Below, in pieces: positions 7,918-13,076 of a DNA stretch of 13,076 nt (the first letter of the stretch is position 1; each line of letters starts with the position of its first letter). Under the pieces are notes generated by a model that was not told the DNA's origin, ran no database searches, and worked only from the letters and a program-made list of their open reading frames with translations. Source of the DNA: Leptospiraceae bacterium (GTDB taxonomy: Bacteria; Spirochaetota; Leptospiria; Leptospirales; Leptospiraceae); contig JANYCR010000053.1 of NCBI GenBank assembly GCA_025360185.1, positions 1 through 13,076 on the forward strand, given 5' to 3'. Both the position numbers and the translations under genes were made by a program.

Positions 7918-8304
7918 ATGAAAGTAAAAATTAGCGTCTTGTTAGCGAGTATTGTTCTTGTAGCAGGATTATATCCAAATGATTTCGGCTCCAATTTCAT
8001 TTCGTCGCTTTCGTCAGGAGATTGTAAGGGAATCGCAAGCAAAGACAAGAGCTGGTGCACTACAAACGATTGTAAAGCAATTGCAAGCGGAGACAAAAGT
8101 TGGTGCCAGTCAAGCGACTGTAAAGGAGTAGCGGCTAAAGACAAATCATGGTGTAGTTCAAGTCTTTGCAAAGCATGGGCATCAAGTGATAAAAGCTGGT
8201 GTAACGATAGCGATTGTAAAGGAGTAGCCTCAAAAGATAAGTCCTGGTGTAGTTCAGCACAGTGCAAAGCAATTGCAAGTGGTGATAAAAGCTGGTGCAA
8301 TTAA
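7918..8304 (+). CDS. Secreted Cys-rich tandem-repeat protein (signal peptide + 6 x 16-aa 'DCK[GA]xASxDKSWCxxx' modules)
   Basis: - Strong RBS AAGGAG at 7903-7908, 9 nt before ATG 7918.
- N-terminal 'MKVKISVLLASIVLVAGL' is a Sec-type signal peptide (no lipobox Cys).
- Then six modules each with Cys-x10-Cys (12 Cys in total), rich in K/S/D/W.
- Codon-level repeat conservation implies a real ORF. Confidence 0.7.
   Translation: MKVKISVLLASIVLVAGLYPNDFGSNFISSLSSGDCKGIASKDKSWCTTNDCKAIASGDKSWCQSSDCKGVAAKDKSWCSSSLCKAWASSDKSWCNDSDCKGVASKDKSWCSSAQCKAIASGDKSWCN
8020..8301 (+). repeat. Six tandem 48-nt coding repeats (last one 42 nt) with alternating A/B subtypes (96-nt super-repeat x3)
   Basis: - Repeat units start at 8020, 8068, 8116, 8164, 8212 and 8260.
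- Odd units encode CKG(I/V)A(S/A)KDKSWC; even units encode CKA(I/W)AS(G/S)DKSWC.
- There are no spacers, so this is not CRISPR.
- The 129-aa minus-strand ORF 7911-8300 is a mirror artefact of this repeat. Confidence 0.9.
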
Positions 8305-8316
8305 TCCAACCGTTTA

Positions 8317-11067
8317 TTGGAAGATGGATATAAGTCATTGAGTAACGAAAACGAATCTATTCTAGAATTAAAAAATGAAATTGAACTTTTAAAATTAGAA
8401 AAAGAAGAGCTAAATAGATTCTTTTCACTAAATTTAGATTTACTTTGCATTGCTAACCAGGAAGGTAATTTTCTTAAATTAAACAAGTCTTGGGAGTCAA
8501 TTTTAGGTTATCCGCTAGAAGAATTACAAAACCAAAAATTTTTTAATCTAATTCATCCAGAAGATTTACAGTCAACGAATGATGCATTGGCAAGGCTAGA
8601 TGCCAGCCAACCGGTCTTAAATTTTGTAAACCGCTATCGTCACAAGAACGGGACGTATAAATTTTTAGAATGGAGTGGGCAACAGTATGGTAAATTCATT
8701 TATTGTACTGCAAAGGACATTACAGAACAAATCGAAATTCATAGTAAGATTCAAAAAAATGAAGAGTCTCTTCGTAAAGCTCAGAGTCTTTCTAAAATAG
8801 GAAGTTGGGAATTTGATCTAATCAGTTTTGAATTAATTTGGTCAGATGAACATTATAAAATCTTTGAATTGGAAAAGCAACCCTCCGATAAATTATATTC
8901 TGCCTATCGATCAAAAATTCATCCAGATGATATTTCTGCCTTAGATAAAGTCGTAAATGATGCGATCGAAAGCGCAGCAAACTTTGTATATGAGCATAGA
9001 GTTATTTGTAAGGATGGAAGTATTAAAAAAGTAGTCGGAATCGGAGAAGTAATTAAGGATAATAAGAATAAGCCGATTAAACTACACGGAACTGTTCAAG
9101 ATATTACAGAGCGCGAAATTTCAGAAATATCTTTGCAAAAAAAAGAGCAACAATTACGTCTCGCACTCAGTGGGGGAAACCTCGGAATATGGGAATGGAA
9201 TTTTTCGACTGGTAAATTAGAAGTAGACGACCGCTGGATGGCAATTCTTGGATTGGATAATGACCATAAACCTACAATAGAATCTTGGAGTTCCCTTGTT
9301 CATCCGGAGGATATTGGCAAATTAGATATTCTCGTTCAAGAAGTAATCCTAAATCCTTTTGGCACTTCCTTCGAAACAGAGATACGAGCAATGCATAAGA
9401 ATGGCAATTATATTTGGATTTTAGACAAAGGCGCAGTTGTAGAAAGAGATAAGGATGGTAAGCCACTCTATATCATTGGTACTCATATGGATATTACGGA
9501 AAGCAAAGAGGCGCAGCGAACTTTAAGTTTGCGGGAAAAATCTTTAGCTGCTATATCACAAGGAGTTCTATTGACTGATCCGAATCGAAAAATTACCTAC
9601 GTGAACAAAGCCTTTGAAGAAATTACCGGTTACACTGAAGCGGAAATGTTAGGGCAAACATGCATTATGCTGCAAGGTAAAGAAACAGACCAGGCTACGG
9701 TTCTTGCAATTCGTGCTGCATTGCAAAACCATGTACCTATACAAACCGAAATTTTAAACTACGCCAAAGATGGTAAAACATTCTGGAATCTCTTGGCGAT
9801 TTCTCCTGTATTCGATGCGAGTGGAAAATTAATCCAATTCGTAGGAGTGCAAAAAGACATCACAGGAAGAAAGCAAATAGAAATCGAACTCATCCAAGCA
9901 AAAGAGCAGGCGGAGGCGGCAAATCGTGCTAAGTCGGAATTTCTTGCAAATATGAGCCATGAGATACGAACGCCTCTCAATGCAATCATCGGCTTCACAG
10001 ATTTACTCACTCTCTCAAATCTAAATGATACGGAGAAACAATATTTAAACATAGTATTTCAATCTGCAAATTCGCTTTTAGAATTATTGAATGATATATT
10101 AGATTTTTCTAAAATAGAAGCAGGAAAGTTGGAGCTTCACCTTGAAAAGGTTGATCCATATGAATTGCTTAAGCAAGTAACAGATATACTTAAATTCAAA
10201 GCCCTGGCTAAAGGAATTAAAGTATTTTTAACCAGTCCAGTAAATATTCCCCATTTTATCTGGACTGATCCGATTCGACTGCGGCAAATTATGATAAACC
10301 TGTTAAGTAATGCAGTAAAATTTACAAACCATGGCGAAATAGAAATAAAAGTAGAAGTAAATGATCATAACCCGCACGATAATACTTCTAATCTTCATTT
10401 TTCTGTAAGGGATACAGGGATAGGTGTATCTAAAGAAAATCAAGAAAAAATATTTGAAGCATTCTCTCAGGTAGATAGTTCAAACAATCGTAAATTTAGA
10501 GGCACTGGACTCGGGCTTACAATTTCAAATGACTTACTGGCACTCATGAATAGCAAATTAGAAGTAAAGAGTGAACTCGGTGTTGGCAGCATATTTTATT
10601 TTTCCCTATCTGTAAAAATAGAATATGCAGAAAATATTTATATGCAACCTAATAGCCCCGAAAATAAAACTCTGCTCGAAAGTAAATTTAAGATTCTGCT
10701 TGTAGATGATGATCTATTAAATCTAAGTTTAATAAAAACTATTATCAGAAATATTCTGCCTAATGCAATTTTATTGGAAGCTAGTAATGGTAGAGAAGCA
10801 GTTGAACTTTTTATAAAAGAGCAACCGGATATTATTTTCATAGATATTCAAATGCCAGAAATGAATGGACATGAGGCAACAAATACAATTCGAAAATTAG
10901 AAACAAATAAAAAAATACCGATTATCGCAGTCACAGCTGGCGTCACCGATGGAAATAGGGATAAATGCTTTGCATGCGGTATGGATGATTTTACGAGTAA
11001 GCCTGTAACAAAAACAAAGCTTAAACTTCTACTCCAGAAGTGGCTTGTAACAAAAGCATTGCAATAA
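8317..11067 (+). CDS. Cytoplasmic multi-PAS / LOV hybrid sensor histidine kinase (PAS x3 - LOV - HisKA - HATPase_c - receiver)
   Basis: - 916 aa; the only available start is TTG at 8317 (no in-frame ATG for about 300 codons).
- The frame is continuous with the upstream repeat gene, interrupted by its TAA at 8302-8304.
- N-terminal coiled coil, then PAS-like blocks.
- LOV-like domain around nt 9550-9870.
- H-box 'EFLANMSHEIRTPLNAIIGF' (His codon 9958-9960).
- HATPase 'LLSNAVKFTNHGEIEI', 'DTGIGVS', 'GTGLGLTIS'.
- C-terminal receiver 'ILLVDDDLLN', 'IIFIDIQMPEMNG' (Asp codon 10843-10845), 'IIAVTAG', 'DFTSKP'.
- No TM segments. Confidence 0.85.
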   Translation: MEDGYKSLSNENESILELKNEIELLKLEKEELNRFFSLNLDLLCIANQEGNFLKLNKSWESILGYPLEELQNQKFFNLIHPEDLQSTNDALARLDASQPVLNFVNRYRHKNGTYKFLEWSGQQYGKFIYCTAKDITEQIEIHSKIQKNEESLRKAQSLSKIGSWEFDLISFELIWSDEHYKIFELEKQPSDKLYSAYRSKIHPDDISALDKVVNDAIESAANFVYEHRVICKDGSIKKVVGIGEVIKDNKNKPIKLHGTVQDITEREISEISLQKKEQQLRLALSGGNLGIWEWNFSTGKLEVDDRWMAILGLDNDHKPTIESWSSLVHPEDIGKLDILVQEVILNPFGTSFETEIRAMHKNGNYIWILDKGAVVERDKDGKPLYIIGTHMDITESKEAQRTLSLREKSLAAISQGVLLTDPNRKITYVNKAFEEITGYTEAEMLGQTCIMLQGKETDQATVLAIRAALQNHVPIQTEILNYAKDGKTFWNLLAISPVFDASGKLIQFVGVQKDITGRKQIEIELIQAKEQAEAANRAKSEFLANMSHEIRTPLNAIIGFTDLLTLSNLNDTEKQYLNIVFQSANSLLELLNDILDFSKIEAGKLELHLEKVDPYELLKQVTDILKFKALAKGIKVFLTSPVNIPHFIWTDPIRLRQIMINLLSNAVKFTNHGEIEIKVEVNDHNPHDNTSNLHFSVRDTGIGVSKENQEKIFEAFSQVDSSNNRKFRGTGLGLTISNDLLALMNSKLEVKSELGVGSIFYFSLSVKIEYAENIYMQPNSPENKTLLESKFKILLVDDDLLNLSLIKTIIRNILPNAILLEASNGREAVELFIKEQPDIIFIDIQMPEMNGHEATNTIRKLETNKKIPIIAVTAGVTDGNRDKCFACGMDDFTSKPVTKTKLKLLLQKWLVTKALQ
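9550..9870 (+). other. LOV (light-oxygen-voltage, flavin-binding) domain within the hybrid kinase, reactive Cys retained
   Basis: 'VLLTDPNRKITYVNKAFEEITGYTEAEMLGQTCIMLQGKETDQATVLAIRAAL...EILNYAKDGKTFWNLLAISPVFDASGKLIQFVGVQKDIT' compared with the canonical LOV pattern:
- '..ITDP...IVYVNDAF..LTGY..EEVLGRNCRFLQG.DTD' (Cys codon tgc 9661-9663).
- 'LNYTKSGKKFWNL', matched by ours.
- 'FIGVQLD', matched by 'FVGVQKD', including the conserved flavin-contacting Gln.
- Deviation: 'GQTCIMLQG' instead of 'GRNCRFLQG', so the Arg and Phe after the Cys are not conserved. Confidence 0.7.
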
Positions 11068-11070
11068 TTT

Positions 11071-11766
11071 TTAACCCATTCTCTTTTTTAATTCAGAATA
11101 AACTTTTCTTGATACAGGAAGCTCTGTTTCATTTTTTAATTCTAAAGTATATTTTCCGCCCGTTTTAGATTTAAGAAACTTTCCTTCCCGTAAATTAACC
11201 AAGTAGGATTTGTGAATTCGAAAGAAATGCGAGGGCAAAATTTTGCATAAAGAATCTAGAGTTTTACGATGAGTATCCGTTTCTCCATTTTTGCGATGAA
11301 TTAGAGTATAATTATCCTGACCTTGAATATAGCAAATTTCTTTTATGGGGATAATTTCTATTTTGTCCTCCTTCTTTACACTCAGGAATTTAGTATAACG
11401 AGAATTTGCCGCTAAATTTTTCCATTTTTGCAATGCTTTAGTAAGACGTTCTTTATTTATAGGTTTCGGAACAAAATCTAAAACACCAAACTCAAAAGCC
11501 TGGATTGCTTTTTCTGTCATTCCTGAAACGATAATAGTATGAAAAGACTCAGCGATAATATTTCTAAGCAGGTCAAATCCTTCTCGCCCATCCAAGTTTA
11601 AATCTAAAAAAACAAGATCAACCGAATGCTCCTCTAAAAAACACTCAGACCCAACAAGACTACGTTCCATTTTTAAAGAGGTAATTTCTTTTCCATAAAT
11701 TTCTCGAAGCAATTTTTCTAAGCCTCTTGCGGCTACTGCCTCATCTTCCACAATTAAGATTCTCAT
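11071..11766 (-). CDS. LytTR-family (LytR/AlgR/AgrA-type) response regulator
   Basis: - 231 aa. N-terminal receiver: 'MRILIVEDEAVAARGL', 'VDLVFLDLNLDGREG', 'TIIVSG', 'LDFVPKP'.
- C-terminal LytTR DNA-binding domain: 'IPIKEICYIQGQDNYTLIHRKNGETDTHRKTLDSL...FFRIHKSYLVNL'.
- RBS GAGGAA upstream of ATG (reverse complement of 11770-11776).
- Its stop is 3 nt from the stop of the convergent LOV kinase. Confidence 0.9.
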   Translation of the reverse strand: MRILIVEDEAVAARGLEKLLREIYGKEITSLKMERSLVGSECFLEEHSVDLVFLDLNLDGREGFDLLRNIIAESFHTIIVSGMTEKAIQAFEFGVLDFVPKPINKERLTKALQKWKNLAANSRYTKFLSVKKEDKIEIIPIKEICYIQGQDNYTLIHRKNGETDTHRKTLDSLCKILPSHFFRIHKSYLVNLREGKFLKSKTGGKYTLELKNETELPVSRKVYSELKKRMG

Positions 11767-11806
11767 TTTTATTCCTCTAACCTTGATTGAATATTGGTGA
11801 AATGCA

Positions 11807-13076
11807 TTAGGATACTATCGTAATGCCGCTTTCCCATCCGCCCTTGACGGGTTTAGAGTAAAATTCCCATTTGCCGGGAAATGCTTCTTCTAGCCTTGAT
11901 CGAATATATTTTATCCCAGTGCCTGAAGTTTCTCTCGATGACTCGACAGGCAAGCCATCATTGAATAAAATAAATCTAGTTTTCTTGCCATCAAGTTTTT
12001 TAGTTAAAATAAATTCGCCCGATTTTCTTCCAGGATAACCATGAGTAACTCCATTCTCGACAAGCGTATGTAAAGCAACAGGCGGAATTAGCTCTTTGCC
12101 GCTAATGTCTTCTGTCCTAAGCGAAAACTTAACATCTTTTCTAAGGCTCATAATTTCTAAGTATCGTTTGCAAATTTGAATTTCCTCTGAAATGAAAATT
12201 GTTTTTTTATTAGAAAGTTTTAAAATATAATGAAGCTCATCGGAGAGAGCAGATAGAAGTTTCTTCGCGTTAGCCGGATCTTCATCGAGCCAGATAATTG
12301 TAGCATTAATGGAATTAAGTAAAAAATGAGGATGGATATTACTTTTTAAAAGCTCGACCTCCATTCTAGCAGAAACAAGTTTTGCGTCTTGGGACTCCTG
12401 CCTGTAATAAGAAGCTCTCTCTTCTGCTTTTGTTTTTTCGCGGTTAATAATTGTAATCTTGTAGGCAAGCCCTAGAGATAGAAGGCACATCTCGACCGCA
12501 GAACCAACCTGTAATCCATACTCCGTAAAGGTATTGGTTGGAAAAATTCCGAGTCCTTTAAAAGCATAAATCCCTACTCCAAAAAGAAGAGAAACCCAGG
12601 CGATAATAAAATACCGCGCCGGCTTATAGCCCTTATCCCAACATACAATCCCGACTATAAAAATAGAAATTGCAAATACAATGACAAGACTTGCAAGTAA
12701 ATAAATATTTACAAAGTAAGAAAAAATAAAAGAGGATAACATAAGTAATCCCATACAACCCATCAAAATCTTTTGTAATTTATCCAGAAAAGGAACGTTT
12801 TTCTTGGAGTTTAAAAAACTTCTAGTAAACTGAATTCCCCAGAGAAGCGCAAATCCTCCCAGGAAAGGCAAACTGATATTAGCCCAATACGGAGAATTAG
12901 GCCAGAGGTATTGAAATGCTAATCCATTAAGTATTGACTGACTCGCTCCGTAATTGATTACATAGAGCAGGTAATAGAAATAACCAATATCACGAAGCAT
13001 AAAAAGTAAAATCAAATTATAAACAATCAAAACGAGTAAAATTCCATAATAAACACCAAAGGCAAATTCTTCTCTC
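11807..13076 (-). CDS. LytS/YehU-family multi-TM sensor histidine kinase (N-terminus beyond window end)
   Basis: - Six or more hydrophobic TM segments.
- After them, the His_kinase internal region with H-box 'HPHFLLNSINATI', characteristic of the LytS/YehU/7TMR-DISM kinases, and a C-terminal HATPase ('LIPPVALHTLVENGVTHG', 'GTGIKYIRSRL').
- The frame stays open upstream of the track's TTG 'start' at 13030 to the window edge ('...REEFAFGVYYGILLVLIVYNLILLF'), so the gene is 5'-truncated by the window.
- 40 nt upstream of, and on the same strand as, the LytTR regulator. Confidence 0.85.
   Translation of the reverse strand, partial: REEFAFGVYYGILLVLIVYNLILLFMLRDIGYFYYLLYVINYGASQSILNGLAFQYLWPNSPYWANISLPFLGGFALLWGIQFTRSFLNSKKNVPFLDKLQKILMGCMGLLMLSSFIFSYFVNIYLLASLVIVFAISIFIVGIVCWDKGYKPARYFIIAWVSLLFGVGIYAFKGLGIFPTNTFTEYGLQVGSAVEMCLLSLGLAYKITIINREKTKAEERASYYRQESQDAKLVSARMEVELLKSNIHPHFLLNSINATIIWLDEDPANAKKLLSALSDELHYILKLSNKKTIFISEEIQICKRYLEIMSLRKDVKFSLRTEDISGKELIPPVALHTLVENGVTHGYPGRKSGEFILTKKLDGKKTRFILFNDGLPVESSRETSGTGIKYIRSRLEEAFPGKWEFYSKPVKGGWESGITIVS

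Follow-up and report, generated by a model that had tools for sequence, protein, structure and literature searches.

A conserved and undescribed family of exported six-module cysteine-repeat proteins in Leptospiraceae, myxobacteria and Bdellovibrio-like bacteria, with a predicted helical-repeat fold

What is the product of a small gene that encodes, behind an export signal, six similar 16-residue modules with two cysteines each, and is it cut into peptides or does it act as one folded protein? This question is raised by an ORF on contig JANYCR010000053.1 of a Leptospiraceae bacterium. We analysed a stretch of 13,076 nucleotides of this contig, which as a whole is called the window. A first-pass annotation, made from the letters of the DNA, had described the ORF as 128 aa long and consisting of a signal peptide and six 16-aa modules, which agrees with the ORF list and the translation (Table 1). 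The K/S/D-rich composition noted at that time is found as well, the mature part of about 11.8 kDa having 25 S, 15 K and 12 D among 111 residues. The N-terminus of the protein starts with the basic n-region MKVK, continues with a 14-residue hydrophobic stretch and has small residues at −3/−1. Our results show that the exported Cys-repeat protein is encoded by a real gene that is under selection and carries export signals.

Table 1. Coordinates of the Cys-repeat gene, its parts and its two immediate neighbours in the window
Feature	Position	Strand	Basis
Major-vault-protein-like protein, 829 aa, upstream, co-directional, 26-nt gap	5402..7891	+	Pfam MVP_shoulder 3.5e-24, Vault_3, Band_7
Shine-Dalgarno-like AAGGAG, 8 nt 5' of ATG	7904..7909	+	direct sequence reading
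Exported six-module Cys-repeat ORF, complete, 128 aa + stop	7918..8304	+	ORF list, translation
Predicted Sec signal peptide MKVKISVLLASIVLVAG, probable cleavage between VAG and LY	7918..7968	+	deduced from sequence features
Conserved N-terminal capping motif YPNDFGSNFISSLSSG, 5' of module 1; family consensus W-x3-[YWF]-I-x2-L-S-S-G	7972..8019	+	alignment A1, AlphaFold2
Module 1 DCKGIASKDKSWCTTN	8020..8067	+	translation; AlphaFold2 helix 33-41 and 3-10 turn 44-46
Module 2 DCKAIASGDKSWCQSS	8068..8115	+	translation; AlphaFold2 helix 50-57
Module 3 DCKGVAAKDKSWCSSS	8116..8163	+	translation; AlphaFold2 helix 66-73
Module 4 LCKAWASSDKSWCNDS, L at position 1 and W at position 5 invariant in the close subfamily (A1)	8164..8211	+	AlphaFold2 helix 82-89
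Module 5 DCKGVASKDKSWCSSA	8212..8259	+	translation; AlphaFold2 helix 98-105
Module 6 QCKAIASGDKSWCN	8260..8301	+	translation, alignment; AlphaFold2 helix 114-121
PAS / histidine kinase / receiver hybrid sensor, downstream, co-directional, 12-nt gap	8317..11067	+	Pfam

A mirror ORF of 129 aa on the minus strand (7911..8300) is also open in the window, and an alternative reading would be that this is the real gene or that there is no gene at 7918..8304 at all. Exact look-up in a collection of 15 billion proteins finds neither the Cys-repeat ORF nor the mirror ORF, and both flanking genes are present there. Comparison with relatives speaks against this reading. Between the window and the repeat region of its closest orthologue (L007, from a Leptospiraceae MAG) there are 34.8 synonymous and 10.2 non-synonymous differences, and dN/dS of the plus frame is 0.02 with dS saturated. 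The plus-strand Cys-repeat ORF is under strong purifying selection and has homologues in several phyla. The mirror frame contains a stop in L007 and in 64 of the 76 distinct family loci, and its product is a low-complexity L/H/Q/S string without homologues. The minus-strand ORF had been regarded as an unlikely gene already in the first-pass annotation. The comparative data confirm this and refute the mirror-ORF or no-gene reading, to which we assign practically no probability. The source annotation apparently skipped the Cys-repeat gene.

Each of the six modules has exactly two Cys, 10 residues apart, and the invariant DKSWC, as had been noticed from the sequence initially. A short conserved cap between the signal peptide and module 1 reads NDFGSNFISSLSSG; W23 and S32 of the capping motif are nearly invariant in alignment A1. 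The last Cys is located one residue from the C-terminus, which is also the case in 79 of the 118 called family proteins that were tallied. Amino acid identity is about 0.77 within modules 1, 3 and 5 and within modules 2, 4 and 6, and about 0.63 between both sets; the A/B alternation of modules in the window protein is real but modest. In most relatives, the closest relative L007 included, module 2 is of the 'G' type, and therefore strict A/B alternation is not a family trait. At the DNA level, Tandem Repeats Finder reports a period of 48 at 8020-8125 (2.2 copies, 79% matches) and a period of 96 at 8113-8297 (1.9 copies, 78% matches). The 48-nt units had been described as two alternating subtypes that form a 96-nt super-repeat present three times. 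The alternation is found here, but three clean 96-nt copies are not, and the relatives do not alternate strictly. Nor are the DNA units nearly identical, as was claimed: their pairwise nucleotide identity is 52-79%, and about half of the codons differ where residues are identical across modules. For the conserved Ser of DKSWC, four modules use AGY codons and two use TCN codons, and these two codon classes do not interconvert by one synonymous step.

It is important to place the protein among its relatives. Pfam-A (E ≤ 0.01) and NCBIfam scans of the window ORF gave no family, which is in line with the earlier statement that no characterised family could be recognised. A word-indexed search found 25 close homologues of the window protein with E down to 3e-45, an exhaustive profile search of 1.84 billion proteins found 184 related cluster representatives, and a scan of one genome per species gave 84 genomic matches in about 75 genomes. 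The genomic matches are mostly from Myxococcota (Kofleriaceae, Polyangiaceae and the cultured Minicystis rosea), about 19 are from Leptospiraceae, Leptospirales or other spirochaete MAGs, and a few are from Bdellovibrionota or loosely labelled proteobacterial MAGs. The genus Leptospira occurs in none of the record titles of the 80 loci kept. Judged by sequence similarity, the Cys-repeat protein belongs to a conserved, undescribed domain family of Leptospiraceae, myxobacteria and Bdellovibrio-like bacteria. Two long 'fusion' matches, P0043 and P0151, turned out to be low-complexity false positives and were rejected.

The number of modules is highly conserved in this family. Exactly six C-x10-C modules are present in 78 of the 86 fetched loci, which come from at least three phyla; the exceptions are three clusters with four modules and one Bdellovibrionales protein with nine. 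All 12 Cys are invariant in alignment A1, as are L83 and W87 of module 4, and the Q ahead of module 6 is nearly so. The module-specific motifs LCKAW (module 4) and QCKAIA (module 6) are kept across phyla in the close subfamily. When the window protein is compared with orthologues from Kofleriaceae and other myxobacteria, same-numbered modules are 0.86-0.91 alike and different-numbered modules 0.69-0.79. Since the six modules are fixed and specific to their positions across phyla, the array should be older than the lineages, or than transfers between them. From these alignments the six-module array is judged to be old and fixed, neither recently expanded nor prone to copy-number change. This is contrary to the initial proposal of a recent expansion at a locus of variable copy number, for which a comparison of copy number across relatives had been suggested. 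The comparison reveals hardly any variability, the DNA units are diverged, and module-specific residues are conserved between Leptospiraceae and Kofleriaceae.

The window protein is 67-72% identical to L008, L009 and L016 (Kofleriaceae/Myxococcales MAGs). G+C content of the repeat region is 44% in the window as compared to 57-66% in the myxobacterial orthologues. High protein identity despite this gap points either to a horizontal transfer with later amelioration or to very strong constraint. Several genomes have two paralogues of different types, for example L007 and L025, L009 and L075, and L016 and L076.

Modules of one protein also tend to change together. In the whole family, modules within one protein are 72% alike as compared to 57% for same-numbered modules of different proteins. 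Specifically, positions 8-12 shift jointly in all six modules between lineages (GDKSW, GDRSW, RDRYY, GDASY, NSDSY, NNDAY), and DKFY is a further lineage variant of this turn. Recent gene conversion is not an explanation for the co-variation here, given that the DNA units of the window have diverged. More likely, selection keeps the stacking or the surface of the array uniform over its length.

Where the domain works can be approached from its export signals and fusions. In a heuristic scan of 135 family members, a signal-like hydrophobic N-terminus was detected in 111 and a lipobox in at least 39; together with the signal peptide of the window protein, this is the pattern of Sec-exported or lipoprotein envelope proteins. 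A Tat-like RR motif is present in only 3 of the 111 signal-bearing members. In many family members, the anchor and the repeat domain are separated by a long linker of low complexity. The array also forms the terminal domain of larger exported proteins, for example of a WG-repeat lipoprotein with 964 aa and of lipoproteins with 260-500 aa. In some members an N-terminal Cys knot precedes the array, which we take to be somatomedin-B-like by eye from its Cys pattern. Sec and lipoprotein signals together with fusions to lipoproteins and Cys knots point to an extracytoplasmic domain that folds in an oxidising compartment, and in such a compartment six structural disulfides are the natural reading. 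We infer from the sequences that the 12 Cys form six disulfides, the simplest pairing being C-x10-C within each module. Structural disulfides seem likelier than the thiol/metal-binding repeat that had been offered as a second possibility initially. Regarding connectivity, correlated Cys losses among relatives provide one informative case. In the nine-module array of L058 (positions 810-1265, Bdellovibrionales MAG) Ala takes the place of two Cys, namely the second one of module 3 and the first one of module 4, and this paired loss hints at C-x4-C pairing between modules, which it fits better than C-x10-C.

The knot signature CxCDxxCxxxGDCCxDYxxxC is present in P0033, P0036, P0038-P0040, P0046, P0051, P0052, P0055 and P0121. 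In several of the Cys-knot members, the three regular modules at the start of the array are followed by an additional insertion that contains Cys.

The structure of the window protein was predicted with AlphaFold2 using a 16-sequence alignment and five models. The prediction has a pTM of 0.77 and a mean pLDDT of 89, which rises to 95-98 in the repeats, and the five models range from 87 to 89. Averaged by segment, pLDDT is 87 in residues 21-30 and 98 in residues 31-40. Every module is modelled as an 8-residue helix followed by a 3-residue 3-10 helix, and the six-module array is predicted to be one rigid helical-repeat body. The natural four-module relative P0018 gives a poor, non-helical model with pLDDT of 53, and the fold thus rests on one confident prediction together with sequence logic. 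Several conserved positions of the module are in agreement with the helices. In 90% of family modules S/T is found at position 15, as would suit a helix N-cap, and in 64% D is found at position 1. G, K or N predominates at position 8, as would suit a helix C-cap, and positions 5, 6 and 12 are hydrophobic. Conservation of the capping residues supports the helices independently of AlphaFold2. W at position 12 goes with A at position 6 in 81% of the modules, and Y/F/L goes with V/L/I; this pairing suggests volume compensation between two residues packed together in the core. A sequence-profile search of the PDB gave only a chance match (E=0.68), and a fold search of the PDB with the window protein gave no match. 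Literature on the motif or on disulfide-stapled helical solenoids yielded analogies only (CagY, Hcp and alpha-solenoid reviews).

Taken together, we find it moderately probable that the gene encodes an exported, disulfide-stapled helical-repeat domain that is not cleaved and works as a rigid binder or scaffold in the envelope or at the surface. If this is true, the small Cys-repeat protein would be exported by the Sec pathway and fold as a single domain, in which an N-terminal cap is followed by six 16-residue modules stacked as a rod-like helical solenoid. Each module would form an 8-residue alpha-helix, with S/T at position 15 and D at position 1 as N-cap and G/N at position 8 as C-cap, and then a 3-10 turn. 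Together with the two Cys, positions 5 (I/V), 6 (A/V) and 12 (aromatic) would make up the small core. In the oxidising periplasm the 12 invariant Cys would be converted to six disulfides, in the simplest case one C-x10-C staple per module. Such a protein could act, uncleaved, as a compact, protease- and stress-resistant extracytoplasmic binder, scaffold or spacer. The organism studied here would have a free periplasmic or secreted form of the domain; in relatives the domain would be hung on a lipid anchor or membrane helix via a flexible linker, or placed at the end of larger surface proteins. The disulfide state and connectivity, the solenoid geometry and the binding or scaffold role are what we infer. 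Nearly all conserved positions can be explained structurally, and binding is therefore the role assumed by default.

A more far-reaching form of this explanation can be put forward tentatively, and we are inclined to doubt it as a whole. The family would then have a new fold, an alpha/3-10 solenoid with 16 residues per turn, a disulfide-ladder core and jointly changing turn motifs (DKSW, DRYY, DASY, SDSY, NDAY). It would be an undescribed extracytoplasmic family, probably shared horizontally by Myxococcota, Bdellovibrionota and non-pathogenic Leptospiraceae. Its surface, with a period of roughly 1 nm and an invariant Lys/Arg ladder, would bind a periodic envelope polymer.

Other functions have to be weighed against an uncleaved structural domain. 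The 12 Cys could stay reduced and form a ladder of thiolates along the repeat. Similarly to copper-storage proteins and metallothioneins, this ladder would serve in the periplasm as a metal buffer, by taking up soft metals, e.g. Cu(I), or as a redox buffer against oxidants. The invariance of all 12 Cys and their regular C-x10-C-x4-C spacing are compatible with this, a Cu-binding_MopE motif occurs in the upstream neighbour at two myxobacterial loci, and structure prediction does not distinguish disulfides from metal sites. On the other hand, Sec or lipoprotein signals with hardly any Tat-like motifs mean that the chain folds in an oxidising compartment, and the array is fused with somatomedin-B-like disulfide knots. 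Conserved His/Met co-ligands are lacking, metal-handling genes are not among the conserved neighbours, and Pfam gives no match to any metal-binding family. We consider such a buffer unlikely. The same holds for a specific inhibitor or immunity protein, a rigid repeat that blocks a secreted lytic enzyme (protease, lysozyme-like enzyme or peptidoglycan hydrolase) and thereby shields the envelope of predatory or competitive bacteria. Myxococcota and Bdellovibrionota are predatory, and the family is concentrated in these two groups and in environmental Leptospiraceae. Its proteins are small, exported, disulfide-rich and often lipid-anchored, and helical-repeat immunity proteins, ankyrin and Sel1-like, are a known precedent. 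Yet toxin or hydrolase genes are not consistently adjacent, there is no Pfam match to known inhibitor families, and no conserved surface patch was identified. An inhibitor or immunity role is a more specific version of the binding idea, improbable as it stands and without direct support.

The proposal that we started from was a multi-copy precursor from which six disulfide-cyclised peptides of about 12-16 residues would be cut out as pheromones or toxins. It was suggested by six similar modules that follow a signal peptide and could each form one disulfide loop. Our results make it very unlikely. The linkers contain no conserved cleavage site and no protease motif, dibasic or of another kind; residues vary at positions 14 and 16, and the linker residues that are conserved (positions 15 and 1) are those of the helix caps. 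Differences between modules are conserved by position, as in LCKAW and QCKAIA, and copy number is fixed at six. Instead of separate peptides, the array is predicted as one rigid domain, and it also stands at the end of lipoproteins of 260-960 aa. Moreover, no peptidase, modifying enzyme or exporter is found among conserved neighbours at the 86 loci. The six-module Cys-repeat gene gives no evidence for a new peptide-signalling or toxin system.

There are known proteins with which an uncleaved, disulfide-stapled repeat domain can be compared. The leucine-rich repeat variant (LRV) fold of Azotobacter vinelandii forms a superhelix of alternating alpha- and 3-10-helices, and the predicted repeat of the window protein resembles it in this alternation. 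Beetle antifreeze proteins (Tenebrio/Dendroides) have 12-13 aa repeats with two Cys each, the disulfides of which form a regular solenoid core. The likeness lies in very short two-Cys repeats with disulfides, putative in our case, as the core of a solenoid. However, the beetle proteins are beta-helices with a TxT ice-binding ladder, whereas the window protein is predicted to be helical and has no TxT ladder. A paper on disulfide mapping in Dendroides is cited in PMC2581425. By analogy, the window protein seems closest to two Helicobacter systems, the Sel1-like repeats of Hcp proteins and the helical, Cys-rich A/B modules of CagY, and it is a member of neither. HcpB and HcpC of Helicobacter are exported tandem alpha-helical repeat proteins with a disulfide-stapled Cys pair in each repeat (PMC2581425), and they share with the window protein the two Cys per repeat in an exported bacterial array of helical repeats, predicted in our case. 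Their repeat, a helix-turn-helix of 36 aa matching the Sel1 profile, contrasts with the 16-aa unit here and its predicted single helix and 3-10 turn. The window protein has no Pfam Sel1 match (E ≤ 0.01), and the Sel1 unit is 36-44 aa of alpha/alpha as compared to 16 aa. For the middle repeat region of Helicobacter pylori CagY, disulfides have been proposed to stabilise a surface-exposed array (PMC2581425). Both proteins have tandem modules of two alternating types (A/B), alpha-helical by prediction in the window protein, with regularly spaced Cys and many Lys. CagY motifs are much longer (38-39 aa for the A motif), number dozens and vary in copy number by recombination, and CagY is a type IV secretion component, while the window array is fixed at six in a small stand-alone protein. 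Membership among copper-storage proteins or metallothioneins is not indicated by Pfam, NCBIfam, or PDB sequence and fold searches, none of which gave a match. In kind, the family may be placed with cysteine-stapled tandem-repeat proteins, and it belongs to none of the systems compared.

The family defines a domain of unknown function that is missed by curated libraries and can be skipped by gene callers. If the model holds, its repeat would be among the shortest helical-repeat units known, and the domain a disulfide-cored alpha-solenoid without a solved relative. This would be of interest for the classification of repeat proteins and for protein design, as a very small, rigid and oxidation-stable scaffold. 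That the family is restricted to environmental Leptospiraceae and to bacteria of predatory or social habit suggests that its members have an envelope or surface function in common.

Genomic context is specific to close relatives. No terminator-like site was found between the vault-like, Cys-repeat and PAS kinase genes, and co-transcription of these three packed genes is therefore plausible. The arrangement recurs only in the closest relative L007. The vault-like gene was accordingly rejected as a conserved partner, its adjacency being confined to the window and L007, and the neighbourhood comparison excludes the PAS kinase gene as a partner across the family. Clustering of the flanking ORFs of 86 loci revealed no neighbour family common beyond close clades. 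Annotated neighbours are unrelated by Pfam and include a HAD hydrolase, FliD, a fatty-acid desaturase, a restriction enzyme, a nitroreductase and others.

The vault-like protein has a 90%-identical orthologue in L007. Bacterial MVP homologues are listed only for Myxococcales, Cytophagales and Oscillatoriales in a preprint (bioRxiv 10.1101/872010). Outside the three central genes, the contig is rich in signalling genes. An MCP fragment, CheW, CheA, CheB, a HATPase-only kinase-like protein and a receiver are located at 2..5305 on the plus strand, and reading of the translations assigns a probable LytTR-type regulator with a membrane sensor kinase to 11071..13030 on the minus strand.
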